DNA from: a bacterium
GTDB lineage: Bacteria; Sysuimicrobiota; Sysuimicrobiia; Sysuimicrobiales; Kaftiobacteriaceae
Assembly (NCBI GenBank): GCA_044868695.1
Contig: JBIOWP010000006.1
Location: forward strand, 1-20,459
Direction of reading: 5' to 3'
Length of the DNA stretch: 20,459 nucleotides
The notes beneath the pieces are model-generated. The model saw nothing but the letters and a program-made list of their open reading frames with translations, was not told the origin of the DNA and did not search any database. Position numbers and translations under genes: made by a program. Positions 1-20,332 of this stretch are shown piece after piece (position 1 is the stretch's first letter; the number at the start of each line of letters is the position of its first letter).

Positions 1-1
1 C

Positions 2-1341: not shown

Positions 1342-1346
1342 GTAAA

Positions 1347-2148: not shown

Positions 2149-3125
2149 CGGGCATCGTCGTGGCGGGTGTGGACGGCGGTGCGTCGTCGACTGCGTGTGT
2201 TCTCGTCGATGCCACCGGAGGTATCGTGGGCGCGGGACACGGTGGACCGGTGGACCATCTGTACCGGGCCTCGGGGCGGGCGCAGACGCGCCGCGCGCTG
2301 CGTGACGCATTTGCCTCGGCCCGGGCCGCATCGAGGCGACGCGTCGAGATCCGCGCCGTGGTCGCGGGGCTCACAGGGCTGGAGCCGGATTCGCGCGCAT
2401 CGGGCACAGCCATCCGCATCGTCCGCGAGGCCGCGCACGCGCGGGTCGTCCGCGCCACATGGGACGCCGAGATCGCGTTCGCCGGCGCGTCGGCCGGCCG
2501 ACCGGGCGTGCTGGTCATCGCCGGCACAGGCTCGGTCGCCTTCGGGCGCAACGCGAGAGGCCGCACCGTGCGCGCGGGCGGATTCGGATATCTGATCGAC
2601 GACGCCGGCGGCGGGGTCAGCATCGGACAGGCGGCGGTGCGGGCTGCGCTGCGGAGCGCGGAAGGCCGCGTTCGGCCGACGATGCTGCTGCCTTTGGTCA
2701 CCGCCCGGCTTGGCCCGTGGCGGCGGATTCGAGCGCGAGTGTACGGTGAGGGCGGCGGGCGCGCGTTGCTGGCGTCGCTCGTGCCGTTGGTGTCGCGGGC
2801 CGCGCGGCGGGGAGACCGCGTAGCGCGTGGGATTCTTCACGATGCCGGAAGCGAACTGGGCGCGCTCGTCGTCGCGGTAGCCTCACGCCTGGGGATGCTC
2901 GACGAGCCGTTTCCGGTCTTTCCGGTCGGCGGCGTGTTCGAGATAGGACGGCCGGTGTTCGATCCGATGCGGCAGGCCATCCGTGCACGCGCGCCTCACG
3001 CCGTTATCCGCCCTCCGGCGTTTCCCCCGGAGATCGGCGCGGCGCTGATGGCGCTGGAAGCAGCGGGAGTGGCGCTGACGCCGGAGGTGCTGCAGCGGCT
3101 CGCTCGGTCTGCCAGGGGGAGATAG
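2145..3125 (+). CDS. BadF/BadG/BcrA/BcrD-family (ASKHA) sugar kinase, probable N-acetylhexosamine kinase
   Basis: 'AGVDGGASST' phosphate-1 motif, 'VIAGTGSVAFG', 'RAGGFGYLIDDAGGG' and 'VGGVF'. GTGA overlap with nanE. Confidence 0.85.
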   Translation: MTGIVVAGVDGGASSTACVLVDATGGIVGAGHGGPVDHLYRASGRAQTRRALRDAFASARAASRRRVEIRAVVAGLTGLEPDSRASGTAIRIVREAAHARVVRATWDAEIAFAGASAGRPGVLVIAGTGSVAFGRNARGRTVRAGGFGYLIDDAGGGVSIGQAAVRAALRSAEGRVRPTMLLPLVTARLGPWRRIRARVYGEGGGRALLASLVPLVSRAARRGDRVARGILHDAGSELGALVVAVASRLGMLDEPFPVFPVGGVFEIGRPVFDPMRQAIRARAPHAVIRPPAFPPEIGAALMALEAAGVALTPEVLQRLARSARGR

Positions 3126-3162
3126 CGACTGGTGCGAATAGTGACACTGGGGGGTGGGATGC

Positions 3163-4206
3163 GTGGACAAAGTAACGTTGCTGGCTCCGTCGCTGACGCG
3201 ACGCGGGCTACTTAAAGGAGGATTGGCGCTCGCCGGTCTGGCCGCGATCGGGGGCGCGCCCGCGAAGCTGCTGCGGGCCGCCGTCGCCCAATCGCCGGCG
3301 CAGATGGCGCTGCAGCTCGGCTGGTTCGCCAACAGCCAGATGGCCGGTGACTTTACCGCCATCGGCAAAGGGTACTTCAAGGATGTGGGCATCGACGTCC
3401 GGGTCGTCCCCGGTGGGCCGTCCATTGATCCGGTCGGCGTGGTGGCCAGCGGGTCGGTGCCGATCGGGAACGTGGCGTCGATCGGCGTGCTGGTGTCGGG
3501 CCGCAGCCGCGACGTCCCGGTAAAGGCGTTCGCGACCGCGTACCAGCGCCATCCCTTCGCCTTCTTCTTCCTCCGCGGCAAGGGCATCAAGACGCCCGCG
3601 GATTTTGCCGGCAAGACGATCGGCATCCAAGGCACCGCCCGCCCGCTGCTGGACGCGGTGTTGGCCAAGTACAATGTCCCCCGCGACAAGGTCAACGTGA
3701 TCATCATCGGTGGGACCACGACGCCGCTGCTGACCGGCCAGGCCGACGTCGTCACCGGGTGGGTCATCAACTACGCGCAGAACCTGCCCATCGAAGGCCG
3801 CGCCGACCACTTCCTGCTTTGGGACCTCGGCATCCGCATGTACGCCTACACCTACTTCACGACCGACCAGGTGTACAACACGCGCAAGGACGTGCTCGTG
3901 CGGTACATCGCCGCGGCAGCGAAGGGGTGGCTGTACGCGAAGGATCATCCCGAGGAGGCCGTGGATCTGGTGCTCAAGTCTGCCAGCGGTCTCGAGCGCG
4001 AGATGGAGCTGCCCACCTGGAAGATCGCCGCGCCGTACATGAACTCCATGGCCACCAAGCAGTATGGGTGGGGCTACATGGATCCGCAGGTCTGGGCGGC
4101 GTTGTCTCAGACATACCTGTCGCTGGACCAGATCCCGCGCCGGGTCAATCCCGACGAGGTCATGACCAACGAGGTCGTCCTGGCGGCCAAGACGCCCAGA
4201 CTCTAG
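3163..4206 (+). CDS. ABC transporter substrate-binding protein, NMT1/THI5 (SsuA-like) family, Tat-exported
   Basis: Twin-arginine signal 'TRRGLLKG', 'LQLGWFANSQMAG', 'KGYFKDVGIDV..PGG', 'TPADFAGKTIG' and 'HPEEAVD'. I prefer the start at GTG 3163 (G-rich SD 3149-3156) over the ORF-track 3154. Confidence 0.85.
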   Translation: MDKVTLLAPSLTRRGLLKGGLALAGLAAIGGAPAKLLRAAVAQSPAQMALQLGWFANSQMAGDFTAIGKGYFKDVGIDVRVVPGGPSIDPVGVVASGSVPIGNVASIGVLVSGRSRDVPVKAFATAYQRHPFAFFFLRGKGIKTPADFAGKTIGIQGTARPLLDAVLAKYNVPRDKVNVIIIGGTTTPLLTGQADVVTGWVINYAQNLPIEGRADHFLLWDLGIRMYAYTYFTTDQVYNTRKDVLVRYIAAAAKGWLYAKDHPEEAVDLVLKSASGLEREMELPTWKIAAPYMNSMATKQYGWGYMDPQVWAALSQTYLSLDQIPRRVNPDEVMTNEVVLAAKTPRL

Positions 4207-4215
4207 GTCGCCGAC

Positions 4216-5028
4216 GTGACCACCGTGCGCACCGGGATGCCTGCCGCCGTCGGGAGCGCCGTCGAGATTGCGTTGCGCAACGTCTCGATGGTCTTCCCGG
4301 CAGCGGCCGGTCCGGTGCGCGCGCTGCATGAGATCACCTTCGAGATCCAGCAGGGCGAGTTTGTCTCCCTCATCGGCCCGTCGGGCTGCGGCAAGTCCAC
4401 CGTGCTGCGCCTGGTGGCCGATGTCCTGCAGCCGACCGCCGGCATGATCGAAGTCCGTGCGAATCCGCCGGCGCGCGCCCGGGCGGCCCGGGAGTTCGGG
4501 TTCGTGTTCCAGCAGTCCGGGCTGCTGCTCTGGCGCAGCGCGCTGGCGAACGTGACGCTGCCGCTGGAAGTCGGCGGATGGGGCCGGCGCCACCAGCCGC
4601 CGCAGCCCCCGGAAGCGCTGCTGGACCTGGTGGGTCTGAAGGGGTTTGAGGCGGCCTTCCCGCGGCAGTTGTCGGGTGGGATGCAGCAGCGCGTGGCGAT
4701 CGCCCGGGCGCTGGTGACCGGACCGAGGATCCTGCTGATGGACGAGCCGTTCGGCGCGCTGGACGAGATCACGCGCGATCACATGAACGAGGAGATCCTC
4801 CGCATCTGGCAGGCGACGGGCACGACGATCCTCTTCGTCACCCACAGCATCCCGGAGGCCGTCTATCTGTCGCACCGCGTCCTCGTGCTCTCGCCGCGAC
4901 CGGGGCGGATCGTCGAAGAGATCCCGATCGATCTGCCGTCGCCCCGGCGGCAGTCGCTCAAAGACACGCCCGAGTTCTCACGCTACACCGCCGCGGTCCG
5001 GCGCGCCCTCGCCGTGGGAGGGTCATGA
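4216..5028 (+). CDS. ABC transporter ATP-binding protein (NitT/TauT/SsuB family)
   Basis: Walker A 'GPSGCGKST', signature 'LSGGMQQR', Walker B 'LLMDEPFGALD' and H-loop 'FVTHSIPEA'. The start could instead be ATG 4237. Confidence 0.93.
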   Translation: MTTVRTGMPAAVGSAVEIALRNVSMVFPAAAGPVRALHEITFEIQQGEFVSLIGPSGCGKSTVLRLVADVLQPTAGMIEVRANPPARARAAREFGFVFQQSGLLLWRSALANVTLPLEVGGWGRRHQPPQPPEALLDLVGLKGFEAAFPRQLSGGMQQRVAIARALVTGPRILLMDEPFGALDEITRDHMNEEILRIWQATGTTILFVTHSIPEAVYLSHRVLVLSPRPGRIVEEIPIDLPSPRRQSLKDTPEFSRYTAAVRRALAVGGS

Positions 5029-5849
5029 TGCGCGCCGCGGTCACCGCCCCGCCGGCGGACGTCTCCGAGCGCGCGGTGGCCGAGGCGCGCGCCACCGCCT
5101 CGCGGACCCTGTTGCGCCGCTTGGTGATTCCGCTGGTCGCGGTCGTGACCGTGGTCGTGCTGTGGGATGTCGTGGTGCGCGTTTTGGAGCTTCCCGCGTT
5201 TGTGATCCCGCGCCCGGCCGCCGTCGGCGCGGCGCTGGTCCGCGAGCGCGCCCGGCTCGTTGAAAACGCGATCCCGACGATCTTTGAGAGCCTCGGCGGG
5301 TTTGCACTGGGCAACTCGCTCGCGATTCTCACGGCGATCGCGTTCGTGTACAACCGGACGCTGCAGCGGTCGCTGTATCCGGTCGCCGTCGCGGTCCGCA
5401 CGCTGCCGATCGTCGCCATCAGCCCCATCCTCGTGCTGATGCTGGGCAACGGCTATGCGCCCAAGGTGGCCATCGCGGCGCTCATCACCTATTTCCCGAC
5501 GCTGGTCAACATGGTCGAGGGGCTGGAGTCCGCGGATCCCCAGGCGATGGAGTTGATGCACGTGCTGTCCGCCACGCGGACCGAAGGGTTCCGGTACGTG
5601 CGGTGGCCGTCGTCGCTGCCATACCTGTTTTCCGCGCTGCGGATCGCGTCGACGTCCTGCGTGCTGGGCGCGATCGTCGCCGAGTGGATCGGGACCAACA
5701 AGGGGCTGGGCTATCTCATCGTGCTGACGACCTACGACTTTCGCACGGCGCTGCTGTACGCCTCGATGGTCGTGGCCTCGGCGCTCGCGCTGTCCCTCTT
5801 CTTCCTGGTCAGCATCCTGGAGTGGGCGGTGGTCCGGTGGAAGCAGTGA
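5025..5849 (+). CDS. ABC transporter permease (NitT/TauT/SsuC family)
   Basis: 'FVIPRP', 'RTLPIVAISP', 'PSSLPYLFSALRIA' and 'AIVAEWIGTNKGLGYLI'. ATGA overlap and GGGAGG SD. Confidence 0.92.
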   Translation: MMRAAVTAPPADVSERAVAEARATASRTLLRRLVIPLVAVVTVVVLWDVVVRVLELPAFVIPRPAAVGAALVRERARLVENAIPTIFESLGGFALGNSLAILTAIAFVYNRTLQRSLYPVAVAVRTLPIVAISPILVLMLGNGYAPKVAIAALITYFPTLVNMVEGLESADPQAMELMHVLSATRTEGFRYVRWPSSLPYLFSALRIASTSCVLGAIVAEWIGTNKGLGYLIVLTTYDFRTALLYASMVVASALALSLFFLVSILEWAVVRWKQ

Positions 5850-7180
5850 CGCGGACGATCCGGGAGCCCGACCGCCAGACGCCGGTGGCCGCGGAGAGCG
5901 ACGTGCTCGTGGTCGGCGGCGGGCCGGCGGGGCAGGCCGCGGCCGTGGCCGCCGCGCGCGCAGGGGCCGAGGTCACGCTGGTCGAGCGGTACGGGTATCT
6001 CGGCGGGCTCGCGTCCGGCGGCATGGTGCTCGTCCTTGACGACATGTGCGGCGAGGGGGAGGTGACCGTCGGCGGGCAGGCGCTGGAAATCATCGACCGC
6101 ATGCAGCGGATCGGCGCGTGCGTCGCCCCTCCGCGGGAGGACTGCTTCCGTAGCGACACGACGGTACGCAGCCGCTGGGTGCGCTGGGGGTTCGAGGACA
6201 TCTATGCGAAGGGTGCTCCCAAGCCCATCGTGTATGCCGCGTCGTTTGATCCGGAAGGCTGGAAGCAGGCGTCGCACGAGATGGTGGCGGAGGCCGGCGT
6301 CCGCGTCCGCTTCCACTCGTGGTGCGCGCAGACGATCGTCGAAGACGGCGCGGTCCGAGGGATCATCGCGGAGACGAAAGCCGGGCGCCAGGCGATCCTG
6401 GGCCGGGTGGTCATCGATGCGACCGGTGACGGCGACGTGTTCGGCCATACGAACGCGCCCACGGCGAAGGGGTCATACATCATCACGCTGGTCCACCGCC
6501 TCGCGGGCGTAGACACGGACGCGGCGATCCAGTTTGAGCGCGACCATCCGGACGCCGCGCGCGCGCTGGACGGACAGGTCAAACAGATCCTGGGCGGTTC
6601 CTGGGACATGTGGTGGCTCCTGACGCCGCGGCCGGGTGTCGTGTGGTGCAACTGCCCGCACATTCCGGGACTGGACGGGCTGTCTGTGGACGATCTCACC
6701 TACGTCGAGTTCGAAGGCCGCCGGCGCTTCATGAAGGTCCTCGCGTTCGTCCGCGAGCAGTTGCCGGGTTTCCGTCAGGCCTACATCCTGGACGCGGCGC
6801 CGCAGGTCGGCGTGCGGCAGACGCGGCTGCTCGACGGGGAATATGTCGTCACCAAGGACGACATCCTGGAAGGCAGGCGCTTCCCCGACGTGGTCGCCCG
6901 CGGCCGCAACTACTACACGCCGTACCGCAGCCTGATCCCGCGCAGCATCGACGGGCTGCTCGCGGCCGGCCGGTGCTATTCGGCGACGCCGGAGGCGCAG
7001 CGCATCAGCCGGGAGATTCCACCGGTGATGGTGATGGGGGAGGCAGCCGGTATCGCGGCGGCGCTGTCGCTGGAGTCGGGCGTTCCGCCGCGCCGCGTCG
7101 ACGTACCGGCGCTGCAGCGCCGGCTCCGGGCCGCCGGGGTTAACCTGGGGACGCTCGCGCCCATCGGGGGGACGGCATGA
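5846..7180 (+). CDS. FAD-dependent oxidoreductase (FAD_oxidored / PF12831-like), substrate unknown
   Basis: Rossmann 'DVLVVGGGPAG..AA..AAR.GA..LVERYGYLGG', 'VIDATGDGD', 'GVRQTR' and 'PYRSLIP...LLAAGRCYS'. The start is GTG 5846 in a GTGA overlap, not the ORF-track 5603. Confidence 0.87.
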   Translation: MTRTIREPDRQTPVAAESDVLVVGGGPAGQAAAVAAARAGAEVTLVERYGYLGGLASGGMVLVLDDMCGEGEVTVGGQALEIIDRMQRIGACVAPPREDCFRSDTTVRSRWVRWGFEDIYAKGAPKPIVYAASFDPEGWKQASHEMVAEAGVRVRFHSWCAQTIVEDGAVRGIIAETKAGRQAILGRVVIDATGDGDVFGHTNAPTAKGSYIITLVHRLAGVDTDAAIQFERDHPDAARALDGQVKQILGGSWDMWWLLTPRPGVVWCNCPHIPGLDGLSVDDLTYVEFEGRRRFMKVLAFVREQLPGFRQAYILDAAPQVGVRQTRLLDGEYVVTKDDILEGRRFPDVVARGRNYYTPYRSLIPRSIDGLLAAGRCYSATPEAQRISREIPPVMVMGEAAGIAAALSLESGVPPRRVDVPALQRRLRAAGVNLGTLAPIGGTA

Positions 7181-7959
7181 CACAATTCTGCCGGGTGGAG
7201 CGCGACGGCCACATGCTGACGGTGACCCTGAACCGTCCGGACGTTCGGAATGCGCTGCACCGCGCCGCCACCGACGAGCTCGACGGAGTGTGGACGGCCT
7301 ATGAGGCGGATCCTGACCTGCGGGTGGCCATTCTGACCGGCGCCGGCGACCGGGCGTTCTGCGCCGGCTACGACATGAAAGATTCCTCAGAGCCGGCGGG
7401 GACCGCTTTTCTTGCGGGGCGGCACCCCCGGGGCATCGGCGGCCTGGCGCTGCGCTTCGGGATGAGCAAACCGATCGTCGCGGCCGTCAACGGCGTCGCG
7501 GTCGGCGGCGGATTCGAGCTCGCGCTGGCCTGCGACATCATCGTGGCCAGCGAGCAGGCGGAATTCGGGTTTCCCGAACCCCGGGTGGGCCGGATGGCCC
7601 TGGACGGCGGGATGCACCGGCTGGTGCGCCACGTGCCGCTGAAAGTCGCGATGGGAATGCTCCTCTCCGGGCGGCGCATCACGGCGGCCGACGCGTGGCG
7701 CATCGGGCTCGTGAATGAAATCGTGCCGCTGGCGGATCTGCCTGCCGCCTCACGCCGCTGGGCGGAGACGATTCTGGAAGGCGCCCCGCTGTCGGTCCAG
7801 GGAACGAAACAGGCGGCGATGGGAGCGCTGGGAAGGCCGCTGGATGAAGCGGTGGCGTTCGTGCCGCCGGCGATGGCACGGGCGCTGGAGTCTGCGGATC
7901 AAGACGAAGGTGTGCAGGCATTTCGCGAGAGGAGGTCGCCACGATGGACGGGCCGGTAG
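7177..7959 (+). CDS. Enoyl-CoA hydratase/isomerase (crotonase family, CaiD-like)
   Basis: 'LNRPDVRNAL', oxyanion 'AFCAGYDM', 'KPIVAAVNGVAVGGGFELALACD' and 'FGFPEPRVG'. Both catalytic Glu residues are present. Confidence 0.92.
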   Translation: MTQFCRVERDGHMLTVTLNRPDVRNALHRAATDELDGVWTAYEADPDLRVAILTGAGDRAFCAGYDMKDSSEPAGTAFLAGRHPRGIGGLALRFGMSKPIVAAVNGVAVGGGFELALACDIIVASEQAEFGFPEPRVGRMALDGGMHRLVRHVPLKVAMGMLLSGRRITAADAWRIGLVNEIVPLADLPAASRRWAETILEGAPLSVQGTKQAAMGALGRPLDEAVAFVPPAMARALESADQDEGVQAFRERRSPRWTGR

Positions 7960-9158
7960 GCCGGACGGCAGCGCTGGCCGGCGTCACGGTGCTGGACTTC
8001 ACGCAGATTGAATTGGGACCGTGCTGCACGCAGGTGCTCGGAGATTTCGGGGCCGATGTGATCAAGATCGAGCGGCCTGGTGCGGGCGACCCCGCGCGGC
8101 TGTTCATGAAGGCGCCCAGCGGGGAGAGCGCCGTGTTCTGGGGGCTGAACCGGAACAAGCGCAGCGTCGCGATCGACATCCGCACGCCGCTGGGCGGCGA
8201 AGCCGTCTACCGTCTGGTCAAGCGCGCCGACGTGCTCGTGCACAACTTCCGTCCCGGCGTGATGGAGCGCCTGGGCTTCGGCCCCGACCACCTGCACGCG
8301 ATCAACCCGCTGCTGATTTACGCCGGCGGCAGTGGATACGGGCCGTCGGGTCCCTATCGCGACAAGGGGGGACAGGATGTGCTGGCGCAGGCGATCAGCG
8401 GCATCGCCGCGCGGCGCCCCGATCCGACCGCGGCGCCTGAGCCGTGCGCCACGCCGATCGCAGATTTTACCGCCGGCATGATGCTGGTCCAGGCGATCCT
8501 GCTGGCCCTGCTGGCGCGCGAGCGCACCGGGCAGGGGCAGGTCGTCCACGTCTCCCTCCTCGATGCCATGCTGGCGATGCAGCTGCAGGAGGCCACGGTC
8601 TGGCTCAGCCTGGGGCAGGAGCTGAACTGGGGCGCGATGCCGCTGTCCGGAACGTTTGCGACGCGTGACGGCTACATCGTGATGGTCGGCGCGTTCAAAC
8701 CCAACCCGCTGCAGGAGATCTGCCGGGGACTCGGCATCGAAGACCTGTCCGCCGATCCGCGCTACGCCACCCATGAGGCGCAGGTCGCCCACCGGGACGA
8801 CCTGCAGGCGCGGTTCCGCCGGGAGTTCGCGGCGCGGACGACCGCGGACGCCGTGGCAGCGCTGGAGGCCTTCGATATCCTGTGCGTCCGGGTGAACACG
8901 CTGGCCGAGGCGCTGGCGGACCCGCAGGTGGCGCACAATCAAATGGTGGTCGAGATGCGCCATCCTGAGGCGGGAACGATCCGGACCGTGGGGATTCCGA
9001 TCAAGATGAGCGGGACTCCGGGCGCGCTCCGGCAGGCGCCGCCCATGCTGGGGGAACACACGCGCAGCGTGCTGAAGGAGCTGGGGTTTTCGCCGGAGGA
9101 GGTCGAGTCGCTGGCCGGCGATCAGGCTGCGTCGCCGCAGCCGCAGCGGTCCCGGTAG
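7944..9158 (+). CDS. Family III CoA-transferase (CaiB/BaiF/Frc)
   Basis: 'LAGVTVLDFT', 'GADVIKIERP', 'LNRNKRS', 'HNFRPG', the catalytic-Asp region 'PIADFTAG' and 'PPMLGEHT'. Strong SD GAGGAGG precedes ATG 7944. Confidence 0.93.
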   Translation: MDGPVGRTAALAGVTVLDFTQIELGPCCTQVLGDFGADVIKIERPGAGDPARLFMKAPSGESAVFWGLNRNKRSVAIDIRTPLGGEAVYRLVKRADVLVHNFRPGVMERLGFGPDHLHAINPLLIYAGGSGYGPSGPYRDKGGQDVLAQAISGIAARRPDPTAAPEPCATPIADFTAGMMLVQAILLALLARERTGQGQVVHVSLLDAMLAMQLQEATVWLSLGQELNWGAMPLSGTFATRDGYIVMVGAFKPNPLQEICRGLGIEDLSADPRYATHEAQVAHRDDLQARFRREFAARTTADAVAALEAFDILCVRVNTLAEALADPQVAHNQMVVEMRHPEAGTIRTVGIPIKMSGTPGALRQAPPMLGEHTRSVLKELGFSPEEVESLAGDQAASPQPQRSR

Positions 9159-10441
9159 GGGCACAGCTTCGCCATCCACGCCGGGCAAGCCGGGAGTTCG
9201 GCCGGCGGCGCGCCCGAGTCCAGCAGATGCAGGCGGCGCTCGGCTTCCTCGCGGATGGCCGCTAAGTCAGCGAACGTCATCTCGTAGACCATGAACTTGT
9301 CCTCGGGCAGGGCTTCGTAGTAGAGGACGAACCGCCCCTTCTCGATGCCGGACAGCGCGCACTGGAACGCCAGGGTGTCCAGATTCCAGGGGCGCTCGGC
9401 AGGCAGCCGCTTGCGCTCGATGAAGTCACGCGCCCGCGTCGACTTCAGGATCGTCGGGATGTCCTTGTACAGGCGCACGCGGTCCGCGAGTGTCCCAAGC
9501 CGCACCGGGACACTGCGAAACGCGCGCGGGTCACTCCGGTAGATCACCTCGTCCAGCGCGCGGAAGAACCCCCGGCGTTCCATCTGCCCCAGGCGCTCCT
9601 GTGGAGTGCTGGGCGCTTCGTCAGCCTCGTCGAGCAGGCCGAAGGCCGCCTTCCGGGGGAAGACGAGATGGAAGAACTTGAAGCCCTGGGCCCGGGCGGT
9701 CTCATCGCCCAGCTTGCCGCCGAACAGCGCCTCCAGCCGTGGGTCGCGCTCGATGCGCACACTCGACTCCGGGACGATGCGGCCCAGTTCCGCGGTGACC
9801 GTCCCGCAGCCGCAGATTTCTTCGTATTCGCAGCGGCCGAACCAGGTGCACCGGGGCAGGCCGGCGGGATCCCCGGTATCCAACGCTCTGGCGAGGAGGT
9901 CGCGGCGGCGGATCATTTCGGTGCGGATCGCGGGTGCGTCGCCGAAGTGCAGGCGATACGCCCGCAGCTCTGGCGGCCGCCCGAACTCGCCCCGCCCGTA
10001 GATGAGCAGGTGGCCGGCGCCGCGCCCGGTCATGACCGCGTACATGCCCAGCTGGTCCACGTAGTGCGGGTAGATGGCGTCAGTCCCCTGGCGAATGGAG
10101 CGCGTCGTCTTCAACTCGACAGGAGTGTCTTCGTAGATGTCGATCTTGCCGATGATGCCCTCGAACTCCACGAGCTGCTCGGCGAACTCCTCGGTGGAGA
10201 CCGCGCGTTCGAACTCGTTGTGGAACCCGGTGCCGGCCATCATCGCCTGGGTGCGGTCGGGACCGGGCTGGATCTCGGGATGGGTGCGGGCGAAGAACGT
10301 CTTCCGCGGGTTCACCAGGTCGGTGACGGAGATACGCCGCCGCTTGGACTGCGTCTGGATCGCGGCGGTCAGTTCGTCCTTGATGGTGCGGTTGACATCG
10401 ATGGTGCCGCGGATGAATTGGGCGGAGAAGGCATCAGCCAT
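9122..10441 (-). CDS. Tandem two-domain Cas4/RecB-like PD-(D/E)XK nuclease (N-domain intact, C-domain degenerate), each domain with a 4-Cys C-terminal motif
   Basis: N-domain: 'ISVTDLVNPRK', 'GTGFH74', 'GKID101', 'E109LK111', 'Q130LGMY134' and C198/C204/C210/C212. The C-domain repeats this with 'LVFPRK', 'YKDIPTILKST' and C419/C427/C433/C435. Its ATG overlaps the mrfB stop (ATGGCTGA). Confidence 0.82.
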   Translation of the reverse strand: MADAFSAQFIRGTIDVNRTIKDELTAAIQTQSKRRRISVTDLVNPRKTFFARTHPEIQPGPDRTQAMMAGTGFHNEFERAVSTEEFAEQLVEFEGIIGKIDIYEDTPVELKTTRSIRQGTDAIYPHYVDQLGMYAVMTGRGAGHLLIYGRGEFGRPPELRAYRLHFGDAPAIRTEMIRRRDLLARALDTGDPAGLPRCTWFGRCEYEEICGCGTVTAELGRIVPESSVRIERDPRLEALFGGKLGDETARAQGFKFFHLVFPRKAAFGLLDEADEAPSTPQERLGQMERRGFFRALDEVIYRSDPRAFRSVPVRLGTLADRVRLYKDIPTILKSTRARDFIERKRLPAERPWNLDTLAFQCALSGIEKGRFVLYYEALPEDKFMVYEMTFADLAAIREEAERRLHLLDSGAPPAELPACPAWMAKLCPYRDRCGCGDAA

Positions 10442-11504
10442 GACTCTCTGATGACATCTTACTCGTTTTCCGCAGCAGCCGCTCCCTCCGGTGGGTCAGG
10501 CGCCGAGCGTGGAGCGCGCCGTCGCCGTTGAGCGAGGCAAGGGCCTGGGTGGTGAGTGTCAGGGCCCGCCGGGGATCGCGCAGTTCCCACTCCCACATCA
10601 TCGCCAGCCGTTCCAGCGGCTGCCAGGGCGGCAGGATCCGCGTCTGCACTTCCCGATGCCAGAGGTCGAGCACGAGATCGAGCTGTCCGCTCAGCCGGTA
10701 GTGGCGCGCGAGCGCAGTGACGGCGCGGCGCCGCACGCCCGGCTCTCGCTCGTCAGCGAGGGCCAGACGGTAACAGCCGGCGGCGGTGCCGGCGTTCCCC
10801 CGCGCATCCAGCAGCCGGCCCAGGCCGAACCAGTCCACGATCACCGGGGTCTGGTCAGGGCGCGCCAGCACTTCACCCGCCAGCCCGTGCAGCGCAACGA
10901 GCGAGAGAATATCCTGTGCGTTGTGGGCGAAGACCGGCTCGAGCACGTCGAGATCGCCGGTGTGGAGAAACTGCACATAGAGTGAGGGGATCATCCAACC
11001 CGGGACGTCGACGAAGCGCTCGACCTTCAGGATCATCTGTTCCAGCAGCGCCATGCTGTAGCCCCCCAGGCGGCGGTGCCAGAGGCGGCGCGCCAGGGTC
11101 ATCACATCGAGGTGGGATTCGCTCTCGAGGGCTGCGCGCATGCGGCAGAGGAGAAACCGCGTCTGCAGCAGGGGCAGATCGAAGCGGCTGCCGTTGAAGG
11201 TCACGAGCGCGTTGAAACGGCGGAGGTGACCGCCGACCGCCTCCAGCATGCCGGGCTCCGCCCCCAGATCGCGGAGGAAGTACTGGGTGAGGGAAACGCA
11301 GCCGCCGTCGACGGACGCGATGCCGATGAGGAACACATAGGTGCCGGTGCCGCCGGCGAGGCCGGTGGTCTCGGTATCGAGCCACGCGACGGCGTTGCCG
11401 TCCGGACCCGCCGCACGGCCGAGCTCGACGGCGTCGGCCAGCGCGCGCAGTCCGTGGACACGGTCCAGTGGCCAGGAACGGGTGCGGATTTCGAAACCAC
11501 TCAT
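10434..11504 (-). CDS. mrfB: MrfB/YprB-like DEDDh 3'-5' exonuclease (RNase_H_2 domain) with C-terminal helical TPR-like region
   Basis: ExoI 'WLDTETTGLAGGTGTYVFLIG', ExoII 'VTFNGSRFDLPLL', 'DVPGWMIPSLY' and ExoIII 'HNAQDILSL'. ATG 11504 overlaps the mrfA TGA (ATGA). The ORF-track start at 11909 is an extension inside mrfA. Confidence 0.88.
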   Translation of the reverse strand: MSGFEIRTRSWPLDRVHGLRALADAVELGRAAGPDGNAVAWLDTETTGLAGGTGTYVFLIGIASVDGGCVSLTQYFLRDLGAEPGMLEAVGGHLRRFNALVTFNGSRFDLPLLQTRFLLCRMRAALESESHLDVMTLARRLWHRRLGGYSMALLEQMILKVERFVDVPGWMIPSLYVQFLHTGDLDVLEPVFAHNAQDILSLVALHGLAGEVLARPDQTPVIVDWFGLGRLLDARGNAGTAAGCYRLALADEREPGVRRRAVTALARHYRLSGQLDLVLDLWHREVQTRILPPWQPLERLAMMWEWELRDPRRALTLTTQALASLNGDGALHARRLTHRRERLLRKTSKMSSESHG

Positions 11505-13789
11505 GCGGGGACCGCAGGCGCGAGAGCAGCCCTCAAAAGTGCGAGGCAGTCTGCCTTTCCGGTGCTTCCCACCTCCAGCACCGGTCCCACACAGGACGGG
11601 CAGCCCCACTCGCACCCGCAGTGGGAGACCAGGTCGGAGGCGGCGAGCAGGAGATCGTCGTGCAGGCGGAACAGCCGCTCGGCCTGCCCGACACCGCCCG
11701 GCACGCGCTCGTACAGGTAGATCGTCGGCCGGCCGGTGTGCGGGGAGCGGATTTCGTAGACGCGGCCCAGATCGTTGGGATCGCACATCAGGTACAACGG
11801 CGCGATGTTGTGCAGCGCGTGGGAGAGGGCAGCAAGAGCGCCCTGGAGGCGGTCGTTCGACCAGGGAAGGGAGTGCGGGGACCCGGCGATGGCGTCGGGG
11901 AGCGTCCACCAGGCGGCCGTCGTATGGATCGTCGTCTCCGGCAGGGTGATCCGGCCCCAGCCGATGTTCTCCTGCGTGAACAGTTTGAGCTTCTTGAAAA
12001 TCGTCGGCCGGTAGGTGACGGCGACGTCGCCGTGCGCGCGGGGGAGGGAGTCGCCGGCGGACGCATCTTCCTTGAGCACGGCGATCCCAACCGCGATCTC
12101 CGCGTCAGTGTAGTAGTCGACTTCGACACGCTTCACGTAGGCCTTGCGCTGTTCCCAATCCAGCCGCTCCACGTGAAACTGCTGGCTCAGGTGCATGTAG
12201 ATCGCGTGCTCGTGCACCAGTGCCGGGGCCGAGGCCAGGTCCACTTCGCCCACGACGCGGGGGGAGGGATCGGTTTCGTCGATGATGACCACGTTCTCGG
12301 TCGAGGTCGCCCGCAGGCTGATCTCTTCCGCGGGGAAGCGTTCGGCCACGTAGTGCCAGCGGGCGCCGTCGTCGTGCACGATGCGCTGCGACTGCAGGTG
12401 GTGCATGATCTCGGCAGGGACCATTGTGCCAAACGGTTCGTCGTGAGGGAGCGGCAGCTCGAACGCCGCGCACTTCAGGTGGCTGGTCAGCACGAGCAGG
12501 TTGTCGGGGTTGATCAGCGCGTGCTCCGGCGAGTGCTCGAAGAAATACTCCGGGTGGGTCATCAGGTACTGATCCAGCGGATCGCTGGTCGCAACCAGGA
12601 ACGCGGCGGAGAGGTCGCTGGTGCGGCCGGCGCGGCCCATCTGCTGCCAGGTCGAGGCGATCGTGCCGGGGTAGCCGGCGAGGATCGCGGCAGAGAGCTG
12701 CCCGATGTCGATCCCCAGCTCCAGCGCGTTGGTAGCCGCCACGGCGCGGATCTCGCCGTCGCGCAGCCCCCGCTCGATCGCCCGCCGCTCCGTAGGCAGG
12801 TAGCCGGCGCGATAGCCGCGGACCATCTCCGGGTCGCGGTCGTGCTTCGCGGCAAGGTCTTTCAGATACGTCGCGAGCAGTTCCGCGGCCAGCCGGCTGC
12901 GGCCGAAGACGATGGTCTGGATCTCGGTCCGGATCAACTCGGAAGCCAGGTCACGCGCTTCCATCAAGGTATCCCGGCGGACCCCAAGCTCGCGGCTCAC
13001 GACCGGCGGGTTGATGAAGGCGATCACTTTCTCGCCGGCCGGGGCTCCGGAGCGGTCGATGAGCGTGATGGGGGCTCCGATGAGTCGCTCCGCGTGCTCT
13101 TGCGGGTTGCCGATCGTGGCGCTCGTGCAGATGAACTGGGGAGTGCTGCCGTAAAATCCGCAGATGCGCTGCAGCCGCCGGATGACGTTGGCCACGTGGC
13201 TCCCGAAGACGCCGCGGTACTGGTGGAGCTCATCGATCACCACGTAGCGCAGGTTCTCGAACAGCCGCAGCCATTTCGTGTGGTGGGGCAGAATCGCGGT
13301 GTGCAGCATGTCCGGGTTGGTGACGACGACGTGGCCCGCGGCGCGGATCGCCCGCCGGGCCGAGGCCGGGGTGTCGCCGTCATATGTGAAGGTCTTGATG
13401 TCGGTGCGAAGCGCGGTCACAAGGTGCTGCAGTTCGTCCACCTGGTCGGCGGACAGCGCCTTGGTTGGAAAGAGGTAGAGCGCGCGGGCGCCGGGTTCTT
13501 CGAGGATCCGGCTGAGGACCGGCAGATTGTAACACAGAGTCTTGCCGCTGGCGGTCGGAGTGACGACGACGAGATTCCGGCCCCCGCGGACCGCCTCGAA
13601 GGCCTCGGCCTGATGAGCGTACAACGCCTCGATTCCGCGCCGCCGTAGCGCGCCGGCCAGGTCGGGGCGCACGGCGTCCGGGAACGGCGCGAAACTTGCT
13701 GGCTTGGCCGGGAGGTCCCGCCAGGCCGTGATGCGACCGGCGTAGGTAGGGTCGATCCGCAGGCGGTCGAGAATCTGCCTGAGTGTCAT
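11501..13789 (-). CDS. mrfA: MrfA/YprA (Hrq1/SftH-like) SF2 DExH-box helicase with C-terminal DUF1998 metal-binding domain
   Basis: Q motif 'LYAHQAEA', 'TPTASGKT', 'FPTKALSADQ', 'YDGDT', 'TNPDMLH', 'DELH', 'SAT', 'ATNALELGIDIG' and 'QQMGRAGR'. DUF1998 region 'LMCDPNDL...YLYERVPGGVG...CGCEWGCPSC'. SD GGGAGG precedes the ATG. Confidence 0.93.
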   Translation of the reverse strand: MTLRQILDRLRIDPTYAGRITAWRDLPAKPASFAPFPDAVRPDLAGALRRRGIEALYAHQAEAFEAVRGGRNLVVVTPTASGKTLCYNLPVLSRILEEPGARALYLFPTKALSADQVDELQHLVTALRTDIKTFTYDGDTPASARRAIRAAGHVVVTNPDMLHTAILPHHTKWLRLFENLRYVVIDELHQYRGVFGSHVANVIRRLQRICGFYGSTPQFICTSATIGNPQEHAERLIGAPITLIDRSGAPAGEKVIAFINPPVVSRELGVRRDTLMEARDLASELIRTEIQTIVFGRSRLAAELLATYLKDLAAKHDRDPEMVRGYRAGYLPTERRAIERGLRDGEIRAVAATNALELGIDIGQLSAAILAGYPGTIASTWQQMGRAGRTSDLSAAFLVATSDPLDQYLMTHPEYFFEHSPEHALINPDNLLVLTSHLKCAAFELPLPHDEPFGTMVPAEIMHHLQSQRIVHDDGARWHYVAERFPAEEISLRATSTENVVIIDETDPSPRVVGEVDLASAPALVHEHAIYMHLSQQFHVERLDWEQRKAYVKRVEVDYYTDAEIAVGIAVLKEDASAGDSLPRAHGDVAVTYRPTIFKKLKLFTQENIGWGRITLPETTIHTTAAWWTLPDAIAGSPHSLPWSNDRLQGALAALSHALHNIAPLYLMCDPNDLGRVYEIRSPHTGRPTIYLYERVPGGVGQAERLFRLHDDLLLAASDLVSHCGCEWGCPSCVGPVLEVGSTGKADCLALLRAALAPAVPA

Positions 13790-13810
13790 TCTGGCCTCCC
13801 TGTCAGTTAT

Positions 13811-13826
13811 ACGAACTGATGTTCGT
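13811..13826 (-). promoter_or_regulatory. LexA (SOS/Cheo-type) operator upstream of mrfA
   Basis: The perfect inverted repeat ACGAAC-TGAT-GTTCGT matches the Gram-positive consensus CGAAC-N4-GTTCG. It ends 21 bp upstream of the mrfA ATG. On the minus strand it overlaps two TATAAC -10-like hexamers (13830-13825 and 13811-13806), in an AT-rich patch. Confidence 0.82.
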
Positions 13827-13873
13827 TATAGGGCGTGAGGCTCCTGCCAAAAAGGAGGAGGGGACGGGCCAAT

Positions 13874-14692
13874 CTACGAAGGGGTCTGACCCCGATGACC
13901 GGACGCGTAAACATCGACGCGAAGCACACGGACATCGACCGGTTCTGCCCGGCCCTTCAACTGCAACCGGCGGGATTCAAGCGGCCCGAGATCGAGGCCA
14001 GCGGCGTCGTGAGCGGCATTTGAGATGAGGATTTCCCCAGCCCCGGCTAGGGAAGCCAGCCGCGCGGTGATGTTCACGGTGTCGCCAAGCGCAGTGAGGT
14101 CGTAAACGGTTTCTTCTGACCCCACGATGCCGACAAAGGCAATGCCGGTGTGCACGCCCGCGCCGATCGGGAGCCATGGTCCTCCCGGGGCGCCGTGGCC
14201 GGTGGCGAGCAGCAACTCGCGGGCGGCGCGGATCGCCCGCGCCGGATGGTCGGGCAGATACGGCGGGTAAAGTCCGATCACCTCGTCGCCCACCAGCTTG
14301 TCCACCAACGCGTCGGAGTCGATGAGGACGTGGTTGGCCGCGTGGTAGAAACGATTCAGCAGCTGCGTGAATTCGGACGGCGTCATGCGCTCAGCCAGCG
14401 TCGTGGAGCCGCGGACGTCGGCGAAGAGCAGGGACAGCGGGACTTCGGCACCGCCCTGGGAGCGCCGCAGGGTCGTGTTGCACATGTTGCAGTAGTTGGG
14501 ATTCTTGGGGGAGCGCTGCTTACCGATCATCCGCATCAGCACCCCGCCGATGCCGCGAAACGGGGAGTTGCACAGCTTGCACCGGGGGGAGGACGGCAGC
14601 AGGCGGAAAATGCGCCGCTCCCGCTTGAGTAGTGGGTGGGTCCCGGTCAGATACCCTCGCCAGGCTTCTTCCAGCGCGGACTGCTCGCTCAT
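13874..14692 (-). CDS. Class III adenylate/guanylate cyclase with N-terminal CxxC...CxxC (putative zinc-binding) domain
   Basis: 'LFADVRGST', 'VDKLVGDEV', 'GAGVHTG' and 'TALGDTVNITARL'. N-terminal 'RCKLC' and 'YCNMC'. The start is set at ATG 14692 because the ORF-track 14785 lies inside pdxA. Confidence 0.88.
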   Translation of the reverse strand: MSEQSALEEAWRGYLTGTHPLLKRERRIFRLLPSSPRCKLCNSPFRGIGGVLMRMIGKQRSPKNPNYCNMCNTTLRRSQGGAEVPLSLLFADVRGSTTLAERMTPSEFTQLLNRFYHAANHVLIDSDALVDKLVGDEVIGLYPPYLPDHPARAIRAARELLLATGHGAPGGPWLPIGAGVHTGIAFVGIVGSEETVYDLTALGDTVNITARLASLAGAGEILISNAAHDAAGLDLGPLESRRLQLKGRAEPVDVRVLRVDVYASGHRGQTPS

Positions 14693-14714
14693 CCCGCGGG
14701 GAGCCTTCGAGCCG

Positions 14715-15713
14715 TCACCGTGGTCTCCTGTGGCGTGACGCCAGCCGTTCCGCGACCGCGAGGGCCTGCCGCATGGGGCCGGCATCGGCGATCCCTTTGC
14801 CGGCGATGTCGAACGCGGTGCCGTGCGACGGCGTCGTCATGACGAACGGATAGCCGACGCCTACCGAGACACCCTGGTCGAACCCCAGCAGCTTGGTGGC
14901 GATCTGCGCCTGGTCATGGTACATGGACACGACCACGTCGAACTGGCCGGCGCGGGCCAGACGGAAGATGTGATCTGCCGGGTGCGGGCCGGACACCTGA
15001 AGGCCCTCTCCCGCCGCGGCGCGGATGGCGGGTTCGATGATCCGCTGCTCTTCATCTCCCAGCAGGCCGCCTTCACCGGCGTGGGGGTTGAGCGCGGCGA
15101 CGCCGATGCGCGGGGCGGCCTCGCCCGCGCCGGAGGCCGCCTGATGCGCCATCCGGATCGTGCGCAGGACGAGATCGCGGCTCAGGGCCGCGGCGACGTC
15201 GCGTAAGGCGACGTGCGACGTGGCGCGGGCGACCCACAGCAGGGTGTCCGCGCGCGCGGGGTGCGGGATGACGTTCATTTCGTCGTGCTCGCGGATGCCG
15301 GCCAGCGCGGCGCACAACTCGTACTCGTCCCGTACCTGGTAGCCGGCGCGGATGATGGCCTGCTTGTTCAACGGGGCGAAGACGATGCCATCCACGATGC
15401 CGTCGAGGGCCAGGCAGACCGCCGCTTCCAGCCATCCCGCGGCCGCTTTGCCAGCCGCCGGGCTCATCGCTCCGGGCCGCCAGGTGCGATCGGCCGGCGG
15501 CAGATGCGCGAACGCCACGGAGGCGCCCACCGGCGCGGGCCGACCGGCCGGCGCCGCCGGCAGCGAGACCCCGGTCAGCCGCCGCGTGTCCTCCCAGACC
15601 TGCAGGTCGCCGACGAGCAGGACCTCGAGGCCCTGGGCCGCGGCCAGCGCCTTCGCGGTCACTTCAGGACCGATGCCGGTCGGATCGCCGATCACCACCG
15701 CCAGGCGCGTCAC
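14715..15713 (-). CDS. pdxA: PdxA-family dehydrogenase (4-hydroxythreonine-4-phosphate or D-threonate-4-phosphate dehydrogenase; likely catabolic PdxA2 type)
   Basis: 'GDPTGIGPEV', 'APLNK', 'LNPHAGEGGLLGDEE', 'GPHPAD', 'MYHDQ' and 'PSHGTAFDIAGKG'. Confidence 0.9.
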   Translation of the reverse strand: MTRLAVVIGDPTGIGPEVTAKALAAAQGLEVLLVGDLQVWEDTRRLTGVSLPAAPAGRPAPVGASVAFAHLPPADRTWRPGAMSPAAGKAAAGWLEAAVCLALDGIVDGIVFAPLNKQAIIRAGYQVRDEYELCAALAGIREHDEMNVIPHPARADTLLWVARATSHVALRDVAAALSRDLVLRTIRMAHQAASGAGEAAPRIGVAALNPHAGEGGLLGDEEQRIIEPAIRAAAGEGLQVSGPHPADHIFRLARAGQFDVVVSMYHDQAQIATKLLGFDQGVSVGVGYPFVMTTPSHGTAFDIAGKGIADAGPMRQALAVAERLASRHRRPR

Positions 15714-15764
15714 GTGCCACAGTATCCCATGGCCGGCATAGGAATTCCAACCCTGTGCGTGAAT

Positions 15765-15776
15765 ACTGTATACAAT
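15765..15776. promoter_or_regulatory. Candidate GntR/FadR-family operator overlapping a -10-like hexamer in the divergent pdxA/MmgE intergenic region
   Basis: Palindrome TGTATACA (15767-15774) overlaps TACAAT (15771-15776). GntR-family sites are typically GT-Nx-AC palindromes, and a GntR gene lies in the downstream operon. Confidence 0.55.
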
Positions 15777-15796
15777 CCTGCCGGAGGTTGCCGTCG

Positions 15797-17179
15797 TTGG
15801 GCGTCACTGAGCAGCTTGCCCGCTTCGTGCTGGACACCCGCGCCATCCCGGACCCAGTGCGGTCTCTCGCCATGAACCACCTCGTCGATGGGATCGCGGT
15901 CATGCTGGCCGGCTCGACCGAGCAGAGCGGCACCCTGGTGCGCGCGCATCTGCGCGAGACCGGCGGGCGGCCGCAGGCCACAGTCCTGGGCTCGACCCTG
16001 CGGGCACCGCTGCAGCAGGCGGCGTGGGCGAATGGGACCGCCGGGCACGCGATGGACTATGACGACACCCAGCTCGCGACCGATCCCCACAGCGTCTACG
16101 GCCTGCTGACACACCCGACCGTTCCGGTCCTGGCCGCTGCGCTGGCGGCCGCGGAGGGCACCGGGGCGTCCGGGGCCGCGCTGCTGGACGCTTACATCGT
16201 CGGCGTGGAGGTCGCGTGCCGTGTGGCGGACGCGATTGATCCCCGCCACTACCGCGACGGATTCCACTCGACGGCGACGATGGGCGGGTTCGGGGCGGCG
16301 GCCGCGGCCGCGCGGTTGACTGGGTGCGACCTCGATCAGCTGCTGCGCGCCTTTGGCCTCACGGCCAGCATGGGCGCCGGGCTGCGCGAGAACTTCGGGA
16401 CGATGACCAAACCGTTTCACGCGGGCCGCGCCGCGGAGAACGGGCTGTTTGCCGTGCTGCTGGCGCGGCCCGGCTGGACCGCCGCGAAGGACATCCTGGA
16501 GGCCAAACGGGGGTTCTACCGCGCGGCCGCCGGCGGGTTCGATCCGTCCAAAATCGAGGGCAAGCTGGGCGCGCCGTATTTCTTCGTCGAGCCCGGCATC
16601 TCCATCAAACCGTACCCGTCGGGGTCGCTGTCGCACCCCGCGCAGGACGTGCTGCTGGAACTGGTGCGTGAGCACAACGTGACGGCCGAGCAGGTCGAGC
16701 GTATCGACGTCGGCGTGAACTCCCACGTCCCCAACGCCCTCATCCACACGCGCCCGACGACCGCGCTGGAAGGGAAGTTCAGCCTGCAGTTTCAGATGGC
16801 CATCGGCGTCCTGGAGCGCCGGGCCGGTATCGCGCAGTTCGTGGACGCCAAGGTCGCCGAGCCGCGCACGCGCGCCCTGATGGAGCGGGTCCGCGTCCAC
16901 GTGGATCCGGAGATCGAGGCGCTGGGCTACAACGAGATGCGCATGAAGGTGGACATCACATTGAAGGACGGCCGCCGCCTCTCGGGCTACGCCGACAAAG
17001 CCAAGGGCCACCCGCGCAAGCCGATGTCGCGCGACGATCTCAGGGAGAAATTCATGGACTGCGCCGCGCTGGTGATGCCCGGCGGCCAGGCGGAGCAGGC
17101 CCTGGCGAGATTGTGGGCGATCCGCGATGCCGTGCGCGCGGCGGAGCTGATGCCGCTGCTCACCGGACGTGCCCCGTGA
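15797..17179 (+). CDS. MmgE/PrpD family protein
   Basis: 'NGTAGHAMDYDD', 'THPT', 'GFHSTAT', 'NFGTMTKPFHAGRAAENG', 'KPYPSGSLSHP' and 'EGKFSLQF'. Start is probably TTG 15797, 9 nt after GGAGG (15783-15787), rather than the ORF-track 15755. Confidence 0.9.
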   Translation: MGVTEQLARFVLDTRAIPDPVRSLAMNHLVDGIAVMLAGSTEQSGTLVRAHLRETGGRPQATVLGSTLRAPLQQAAWANGTAGHAMDYDDTQLATDPHSVYGLLTHPTVPVLAAALAAAEGTGASGAALLDAYIVGVEVACRVADAIDPRHYRDGFHSTATMGGFGAAAAAARLTGCDLDQLLRAFGLTASMGAGLRENFGTMTKPFHAGRAAENGLFAVLLARPGWTAAKDILEAKRGFYRAAAGGFDPSKIEGKLGAPYFFVEPGISIKPYPSGSLSHPAQDVLLELVREHNVTAEQVERIDVGVNSHVPNALIHTRPTTALEGKFSLQFQMAIGVLERRAGIAQFVDAKVAEPRTRALMERVRVHVDPEIEALGYNEMRMKVDITLKDGRRLSGYADKAKGHPRKPMSRDDLREKFMDCAALVMPGGQAEQALARLWAIRDAVRAAELMPLLTGRAP

Positions 17180-17856
17180 GGACCGCCGACCTGCTGGTCG
17201 CAGACAACATCCCGGCCCGCGACCGGGTCCTGCGCAAGCTGCGCGAGGCCATCCTGGCCGGCCGGTTCGAGCCCGGCCAGCGGCTGCGGGAGCGAGAGCT
17301 GGTGGAGCGCATGGGTGTCAGCCGGACGCCGATCCGGGAGGCTCTGCGCAAGCTCGAGCTGGAAGGGCTGGTGACCACGATCCCCTACCGGGGGCCGGTG
17401 GTCACGCTGCCCACGGTGGACGATGCCCGCGCGCTCTACGAGACACGCGCCGCGCTCGAAGGGCAGGCGGTGGCGCTGTTCGCGCAGCGGGCGGGGCCGG
17501 AGGCGATCGCGCGGCTGCGCGACTCGATCCGGCAGGCGGCCCGGGCCCTGGCCCGCCGCAACCCCGCCGCTGTGCTGGCGGCCAACAACGCGTTCCACGA
17601 CGAGTTGGCGGCCGGCTGCGGCAACAGCCTGCTGCAGGCGATGATTGCCAACCTGCGGGACCGCATCGTGCTCCTGCGGGTGGAGTCGCTCTCCTACCCA
17701 GGCCGCCGGCCGCGGTCGATCGCCGAGCACCGGGCCATCGTGCGGCTCATCGAGCGCGGGAACGACGACCGCGCGCGCAAACTGCTGGAGCAGCACATCA
17801 TGCACGCCTGGGCCGCGGCCCGCGCTCAGCTCGTGGCCGCGCGGAGGGAACGATGA
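17176..17856 (+). CDS. GntR-family transcriptional regulator (FadR subfamily, FCD domain)
   Basis: wHTH 'LREAILAGRFEPGQRLRERELVERMGVSRTPIREALRKLELEGLV'. FCD 'NNAFHDEL', 'IAEHRAI' and 'EQHI'. GTGA overlap at 17176-17179. Confidence 0.93.
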   Translation: MRTADLLVADNIPARDRVLRKLREAILAGRFEPGQRLRERELVERMGVSRTPIREALRKLELEGLVTTIPYRGPVVTLPTVDDARALYETRAALEGQAVALFAQRAGPEAIARLRDSIRQAARALARRNPAAVLAANNAFHDELAAGCGNSLLQAMIANLRDRIVLLRVESLSYPGRRPRSIAEHRAIVRLIERGNDDRARKLLEQHIMHAWAAARAQLVAARRER

Positions 17857-18839
17857 ACCGCGGGAACGCCCCCATGGCCCCGACTGCCCGGCGCATCATG
17901 GAGCAGGTGCTGGCCGTGCGTCCCGGGGAGCGGCTGGTCATCGTGACGGACTTCGAGCGTCCGCGGTCGATCACGGACCTGCTGACCACGACCGCGGCGC
18001 AGTATGGCCTGCAGGCCGTCGTGGTGACGATGCCCGCACGCGACATGGGCGGCGAGGAGCCGCCGGGCGCCGTCGCCGCGGCGATGCGCGAAGCGGACGC
18101 CATCATCGTGCAGACCTCGCACTCGATGACGCACACCAACGCGGAGCGGGAGGCGCTGCGGGCCGGCGCGCGAGTGTGCAACATCCGCGAGGTGGATGAA
18201 GAGATGATGGTGCGCGGCGGCATGACCGCCGACTACAACGAGGTCGATCGCATCACCCGGGCCGGCGTGGCCCTGCTGACCGCCGCCCGCACCGCGCGCG
18301 TGACGACCCCGGAAGGGACGGATCTGCGCATGGACCTGACCGGCCGGCCGGCGTTCGGCCTGTCGGGGTTTGCGCGCGGGCGGGGAGAGTTTTCAGGCCT
18401 GCCCGACGGGGAGGCGGCCATCGCCCCGCTGGAGGGCACGACCGAAGGCGCCCTCGTCAATCCGTACCTGATCGAAAAGATCGGACAGGTCACCGAGCCG
18501 TTCCGGATGGAGATCCGCGGGGGTCGGATCGTACGCGTGGACGGCGGAACGCAGGCCCGCGCGCTGTCCGAGATCTTGGAACGCAAGGATCCCGGCGGCC
18601 GCAACTTCGCCGCGGAGCTCGCGCTGGGTACCAATCCGGCCTGCCGGCTGATCCCCAAGAGCCGGGAGGTGAAGAAGCGGTTGGGCCAGGCGCATGCCGC
18701 GCTGGGCGACAACCTCAGCCTGGGCGGCACGGTCGACAGCGCGATCCACCTGGATATCATCCTGTTGCAGCCGACGGTCATCCTGGATGAGCGGACCGTG
18801 CTCGATGCGGGAGATCCGCTGTTTGCGAAAGGTGTCTGA
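17853..18839 (+). CDS. M29 aminopeptidase-fold metalloenzyme (aminopeptidase T / NicX-like)
   Basis: 'VRPGERLVIVTD', 'GEEPP', 'SMTHT', 'TPEGTDL', 'LPDGEA', 'AELALGTNP', 'HAALGDN' and 'IHLD'. ATGA overlap with the gntR stop and GGAGG SD. Confidence 0.8.
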   Translation: MNRGNAPMAPTARRIMEQVLAVRPGERLVIVTDFERPRSITDLLTTTAAQYGLQAVVVTMPARDMGGEEPPGAVAAAMREADAIIVQTSHSMTHTNAEREALRAGARVCNIREVDEEMMVRGGMTADYNEVDRITRAGVALLTAARTARVTTPEGTDLRMDLTGRPAFGLSGFARGRGEFSGLPDGEAAIAPLEGTTEGALVNPYLIEKIGQVTEPFRMEIRGGRIVRVDGGTQARALSEILERKDPGGRNFAAELALGTNPACRLIPKSREVKKRLGQAHAALGDNLSLGGTVDSAIHLDIILLQPTVILDERTVLDAGDPLFAKGV

Positions 18840-18869
18840 CGCCATGCACACACAGAGAGGGGGAGACAG

Positions 18870-19829: not shown

Positions 19830-19837
19830 GGGATGCC

Positions 19838-20287: not shown

Positions 20288-20292
20288 ACTGC

Positions 20293-20327: not shown

Positions 20328-20332
20328 CCCCG

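Follow-up and report, generated by a model that had tools for sequence, protein, structure and literature searches.

The closest described counterpart of the genes considered here is the MrfA–MrfB pair of Bacillus subtilis (YprA and YprB), a helicase and an exonuclease that repair mitomycin C damage. The pair is defined in bioRxiv 10.1101/426304, whose accessible text also reports that distant homologues failed to complement; the term "LexA" is absent from its accessible main text. We analysed a stretch of 20,459 nucleotides (nt; contig JBIOWP010000006.1 of assembly GCA_044868695.1, hereafter the window) from a bacterium of the family Kaftiobacteriaceae, phylum Sysuimicrobiota, in which mrfA and mrfB are followed by a gene for a tandem Cas4-like protein. 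The original prediction read these three genes as an SOS-controlled, three-component repair system with the Cas4-like protein as a dedicated nuclease partner. We find it probable instead that the locus combines the known mrfAB pair, likely under SOS control, with a separately inherited variant of the solo-Cas4 type that is likely a passenger behind mrfB. The locus is like that of B. subtilis in gene order, in a full-length helicase with its zinc-binding (Zn) domain, in the five DEDDh residues and in a weak TPR match, and it differs by a conserved LexA-type box and a third, overlapping gene.

Helicases of the YprA family are also found in defence systems. DISARM, Druantia, ARMADA, BRIGADE and TALON, as described in the accessible text of PMC12458937, share with our locus a YprA-family helicase near a nuclease; unlike them, this window holds no methylase, BrxHII-like or PLD partner. 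The same text assigns MrfB-associated YprA helicases to repair, in a branch separate from DISARM, Druantia and ARMADA; neither Cas4 nor LexA is mentioned in its accessible main text. A PF12705-type nuclease beside a DUF1998/YprA-like (COG1205) helicase has already been published by Hudaiberdiev et al. 2017 (PMC5704561). In the accessible part of that paper, the helicases of such pairs have large inserts and are read as defence genes, whereas here an insert-free MrfA stands with MrfB, an SOS box and a tandem nuclease. We rejected an identity as a YprA defence system: the genes of the window serve metabolism or transport, and Pfam shows no nuclease fused to the helicase.

mrfA and mrfB Are Members of the Known Pair

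Judged by sequence, mrfA and mrfB are true members of the B. subtilis MrfAB pair and its close orthologues, because MrfA aligns to YprA (6znp; 877 bits, residues 19–747, including the C-terminal Cys motif), MrfB matches the MrfB structure 8un9 (E 8e-30), and the DEDDh residues D43, E45, D109, H194 and D198 do not vary among the aligned MrfB relatives (22/22). Pfam adds matches of MrfB to RNase_H_2 (E 3e-32) and TPR_5 (E 0.02). The identities originally proposed for the two proteins are therefore borne out by their domains (for MrfA a DExH core, a C-terminal domain and four Cys), the full-length 6znp match and all five DEDDh residues. The proposed layout, three minus-strand genes in the order mrfA, mrfB, tandem Cas4-like gene, likewise agrees in coordinates and sequence. 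Both overlaps can be read directly, as ATGA at 11501–11504 between mrfA and mrfB and as ATGGCTGA at 10434–10441 between mrfB and the third gene (Table 1).

Table 1. Features of the mrfAB locus, in window positions (aa, amino acids; ORF, open reading frame)
Feature	Position	Strand	Basis or details
mrfA (YprA), superfamily 2 (SF2) helicase, 762 aa	11501..13789	-	DEAD, Helicase_C, WHD_HRQ1, MrfA Zn-binding domain (Pfam)
mrfB (YprB), DEDDh exonuclease, 356 aa, weak C-terminal TPR match	10434..11504	-	Pfam, 8un9 match
Tandem Cas4-like gene, 439 aa, predicted nuclease	9122..10441	-	ORF call
N-terminal Cas4-like domain, predicted active PD-(D/E)XK nuclease	9782..10441	-	H74, E88, D101, E109-x-K111, Q130-xxx-Y134; Cys cluster C198/C204/C210/C212
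C-terminal Cas4-like repeat, catalytic acidic residues absent	9122..9745	-	Cys cluster C419/C427/C433(/C435) kept
Putative LexA-type operator CGAAC-ATCA-GTTCG	13812..13825	-	23 nt before mrfA ATG; perfect CGAAC-N4-GTTCG

A LexA-Type Box Is Conserved Upstream of mrfA

The motif upstream of mrfA follows CGAAC-N4-GTTCG, which we take to be the consensus of Gram-positive LexA boxes. A TATAAC hexamer, spotted by eye at 13830–13825, abuts it; a promoter/terminator scan called no mrfA promoter and no terminator in 8800–14200. With one mismatch allowed, the window holds two boxes where shuffled sequence averages 1.08; within the window alone the box is no rarer than chance, and a single match in 20 kb has little meaning. 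The perfect box that had been reported before mrfA is nevertheless present and kept in 22 of 24 related loci with upstream sequence (7/7 and 15/17 in two locus sets; three further loci of the second set, cut upstream by contig ends, were left out). Genome-wide there are eight perfect boxes, compared with four for a reversed control. Five of the eight are no more than about 25 nt from a predicted start, belonging to mrfA, dnaB, ruvC, a radical-SAM gene and a gene without a Pfam match, and boxes with one mismatch stand upstream of both lexA genes and recA. No box was found at one mismatch upstream of uvrC or of the second YprA paralogue.

LexA repression of mrfAB through this putative operator is likely, because the box is kept before mrfA and boxes occur at both lexA genes, recA and other starts. 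DNA damage would then trigger LexA cleavage through RecA and free the mrfA promoter; by orthology with B. subtilis, MrfA would unwind adducted DNA and MrfB would trim it 3'→5'. The earlier preference for repair over defence stands for mrfAB itself. Separately encoded nuclease genes carry no such signal: 0 of 88 of their upstream regions contain the box at up to one mismatch.

Two side observations concern the same regulon. The perfect box before dnaB in genome G000 lies 5 nt from that gene, and G000 holds two full lexA genes (C54:2812-3414 and C72:46974-47576).

The Third Gene Encodes a Tandem Cas4-Like Protein

By sequence and structural model, the 439-aa protein is a Cas4-like variant with predicted nuclease activity. 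Its two halves are 30% identical (E 5e-15), as expected from the tandem build first suggested for it. It gives a weak PDDEXK_1 match in Pfam and no match in NCBIfam, and neither database holds a specific model for the tandem family. A full-library search at E ≤ 1e-3 returned 398 representatives, many of them 420–490 aa long. Among 74 aligned homologues, E88, D101, E109, K111, Q130 and Y134 are invariant, which upholds the earlier choice of D101 and E109 as catalytic residues (74/74), and C204, C210, C212, C419, C427 and C433 are invariant as well. In the second half, the positions that correspond to the catalytic ones carry hydrophobic or basic residues. Purifying selection acts on both halves (dN/dS 0.05–0.18 in four pairs).

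The AlphaFold2 model of the protein (pLDDT 89.7) has its best fold match in the solo-Cas4 protein SSO0001 (4ic1; Z 16.0, root-mean-square deviation 2.9, 166 aligned residues). With SSO0001 and Pcal_0546 (4r5q) it shares the fold, the D...ExK and QxxxY motifs and a genome without cas1; it differs from them in joining two domains in one chain, one of them apparently inactive. The cysteines differ too. SSO0001 reads VTDLVRCPRR where this protein reads VTDLVNPRK, so that the N-terminal cluster Cys is missing, and Cys is absent among the commonest residues at positions 44–45 of the 74 aligned sequences. Four Cys together at 198–212 (CX5CX5CXC) take its place, and either half ends in such a group of four. 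The arrangement that marks Cas4, an N-terminal Cys stapled to three C-terminal Cys, is not found here; the PD-(D/E)XK motif and fold are, in the N-terminal half only. Each half likely binds an iron–sulphur (Fe-S) cluster or zinc through its local cysteines, and the dead second half likely acts as an in-chain partner subunit or as an arm that binds DNA.

A CRISPR-associated identity was considered and set aside: cas1 was not found in the 95%-complete host genome, as the original prediction had observed for the window, and the window has no Rfam match.

We predict that the third protein cleaves single-stranded DNA (ssDNA) in a metal-dependent manner, most likely as a 5'→3' exonuclease resecting ends. 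In the accessible text of PMC5704561, Cas4 is an Fe-S exonuclease, Pcal_0546 acts 5'→3' on ssDNA, and SSO0001 forms a ring of five dimers. It is no evident incision enzyme, because the nearest relatives with solved structures are described chiefly as exonucleases, and we no longer assign it the incision role first envisaged. By analogy it may still act as an endonuclease; branched-DNA processing by a Cas4 is reported in the accessible part of PMC12538437. A general role in DNA-end processing, independent of MrfA and MrfB, is likely.

The Nuclease and mrfB Show No Enriched Co-Occurrence in the Host Phylum

The phylum set comprised 94 genomes, which are incomplete drafts and, where related, not independent. 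The nuclease was found in 26 and mrfB in 69: 20 genomes have both, 6 the nuclease only, 49 mrfB only and 19 neither. Co-occurrence is not enriched (Fisher p 0.80 over these 94 non-independent genomes), and 49 of the 69 genomes with mrfB do without the nuclease. Two of the six carriers without an mrfB match are at least 90% complete and belong to one genus. The host family is richer in the nuclease (15 of 21 other genomes) than the other families (10 of 72). One of the 20 genomes with both, G003, was counted despite a likely mis-bin: its 2792-bp contig (L047) is 99.4% identical to a contig of G112 (L236:6055-8846), from another family.

The nuclease gene adjoins mrfB in only 4 of the 20 (G000, G004, G010 and G011, three genera). 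In five more the two share a contig but are separated by other genes, and in 11 they fall on different contigs, in some cases at the ends. In three of the five (G001 and G013, each with a 73%-identical nuclease, and G015) an opposite-strand DUF4389 gene intervenes; G020 and G012 have 2.4 kb and 6 kb, respectively, of toxin–antitoxin, transporter or nan genes. The genes behind mrfB vary in general and include PIN/Phd pairs, DUF559, an ATP-dependent ligase and transporters. Across the phylum the position behind mrfB is variable, and the direct junction here likely arose by loss of the opposite-strand DUF4389 gene; tblastn with a relative's copy found no DUF4389 gene in the host genome.

Several other arrangements were seen around these genes. 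In genus g4 (L215:1-4676, L210:6270-10687) a fusion of UvrD helicase and PD-(D/E)XK nuclease and a second large gene lie convergent a few genes behind mrfAB, and in G024 (L221:4179-5951) an ATP-dependent DNA ligase gene follows mrfAB on the same strand. Genus g6 has a palindromic element, presumably similar to repetitive extragenic palindromic (REP) elements, at the mrfB end (L040:6121-6217, L039, L211), which supplies the C-terminal tail of MrfB in two genomes. A Fic gene, the tandem nuclease and an ERCC4-HhH nuclease gene stand in a row with touching ends in G002 (L034:1632-4772), a genome without an mrfB match. In G113 (L241:5352-6374) the nuclease match ends at residue 81, which suggests a broken copy. 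G012 also has a single-domain Cas4-like gene flanked by those for a family A DNA polymerase and a DnaB-like ATPase (L049:4811-9063), likely a prophage replication block.

Homologues outside the Host Family Have No mrfB in Their Flanks

For loci outside the host family we took the best 80 of 163 metagenome loci and the best 80 of 138 genome loci. None of either 80 had an mrfB match in its flanks. Five of the 160 showed a weak match of 28–29% to the helicase DEAD domain and nothing stronger, one of them being a 550-aa DEAD/Helicase_C protein without a Pfam match to the MrfA Zn domain. The recurrent linkage to mrfAB that the original prediction named as support is thus missing, at 0 of 160 outside loci with mrfB and 4 of 20 adjacent within the phylum.

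Going by record titles, Dehalococcoidia and Thermoplasmata make up most of the carriers, and most Atlas clusters are archaeal; the tree of archaeal and bacterial sequences was midpoint-rooted and has long branches. A search for MrfA at E ≤ 1e-40 covered 46 of the 80 carrier genomes and found a YprA match in none of 15 archaeal ones. RNase_H_2 matches were tried as a proxy for mrfB and dropped, as 40 of 43 carrier genomes were positive and the domain is too broad.

The neighbours differ by lineage. A DUF763 gene lies upstream of the nuclease in 43 loci, mostly of Dehalococcoidia; it has a weak HhH motif, precedes the nuclease on the same strand (L146:4715-5797 and 42 other loci) and is the family's most recurrent same-strand neighbour. 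In Thermoplasmata the neighbours are a flavin adenine dinucleotide (FAD) oxidoreductase and a GNAT gene, or a DEAD helicase and a proteasome subunit. One Thermoplasmata group (L145:4180-5829, L140, L103, L104, L107) has the nuclease divergent from the 550-aa DEAD/Helicase_C gene, whose product is presumably Hef-like, followed by the proteasome subunit gene.

Passenger, Partner or Defence Gene

Co-transcription of the nuclease with mrfAB is likely at this locus, for the sole reason that its gene lies directly behind mrfB. The claim of a dedicated third partner is not supported: homologues occur mostly away from mrfAB, an outcome that the original prediction itself had named as refuting it.

Several observations weigh against a mere passenger. 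Nine of the 15 host-family genomes with both genes keep them within about 6 kb on one contig, and several of the others break at contig ends. The direct joins occur in three genera that do not form a clade, which could reflect either an ancestral operon or SOS co-expression favoured more than once by selection. The junction shows a weak trace of a deletion, 9 matching nt (E 0.84), and a different alignment to G011 is just as good. Among the outside loci, 39 of the 80 from metagenomes are shorter than 8 kb, which limits the flanks of some (41 of 80 reach at least 8 kb); 26 of 28 Chloroflexota carriers hold a YprA-type homologue of 41–50% identity, outside the fetched flanks; and some neighbours elsewhere are DNA-processing genes (ERCC4, DUF763-HhH, LigD, OLD). 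The 5'→3' polarity of the nuclease is read from the fold only.

One rival reading is a three-part system limited to one lineage, in which the nuclease was recruited in a single family as a partner of MrfAB, binds the MrfB TPR or MrfA and supplies 5'-side resection or incision, a step that B. subtilis would obtain from an unknown factor. The start–stop overlaps seen here, the direct coupling in four genomes of three genera and the family's excess of carriers fit this view, and MrfB has a TPR that could bind another, unknown protein, according to the accessible text of PMC11194089. We nonetheless consider it unlikely. Besides the intervening genes in the five same-contig cases and the six of 26 carriers without mrfB, the proteins do not diverge together: identities are 85% for MrfA, 80% for MrfB and 55% for the nuclease in G011, compared with 82%, 72% and 73% in G013. 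The trees disagree as well. A clade of the four adjacent genomes is rejected on the nuclease tree (approximately unbiased test, p-AU 0.003), and the MrfA tree gives weak support (91/94) to a g1+g2+g6 group that the nuclease tree rejects (p-AU 0.0004). We hold to be just as improbable a bolder form of this idea, that an ancient active/dead tandem nuclease is under recruitment into SOS-controlled mrfAB in a single family of an uncultured phylum, docking on the MrfB TPR and supplying the missing 5'-side cut or resection.

Less likely still is an accessory defence or mobile-element nuclease that cuts invading DNA, gathers at insertion-prone sites and stands behind mrfB by accident: its patchy presence (26 of 94), the Fic, PIN/Phd, AbiEi, OLD nuclease and methylase-fragment neighbours in some relatives, and the solo-Cas4 genes in defence contexts and Cas4-like/YprA link in defence islands described in the accessible text of PMC5704561 are offset by the lack of relatives in viral contigs (0, single-protein query), stable neighbourhoods of housekeeping genes in Thermoplasmata and Dehalococcoidia, a GC content across the third-gene region matching that of the window, and no PADLOC system model beyond a weak Cas4.

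Surroundings of the Locus

Positions 1–9158 of the window hold metabolic genes: sugar ATP-binding cassette (ABC) permeases, nanE with a kinase, an NMT1-type ABC system, a FAD oxidoreductase, an enoyl-CoA hydratase and a CoA transferase. On the other side, 13874–20459 encodes an adenylate/guanylate cyclase, PdxA, MmgE/PrpD and TctC. In several relatives the nuclease gene likewise has the nan cluster as a neighbour.

Implications

As a system the locus is mostly ordinary, with a known mrfAB and a third gene that is no fixed partner of it. If the partner reading were nevertheless true, it would put a name to a factor that MrfAB repair lacks and render that question testable. The literature searched on MrfA/MrfB, Cas4, DUF763, DUF1998 and LexA/SOS yielded no description of the tandem Cas4-like family or of this three-gene set. 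With no specific family model and a rearranged Cys cluster, the tandem family is a reasonable target for biochemistry. The LexA-type box before mrfAB across the whole phylum suggests that there the pair serves the general damage response.

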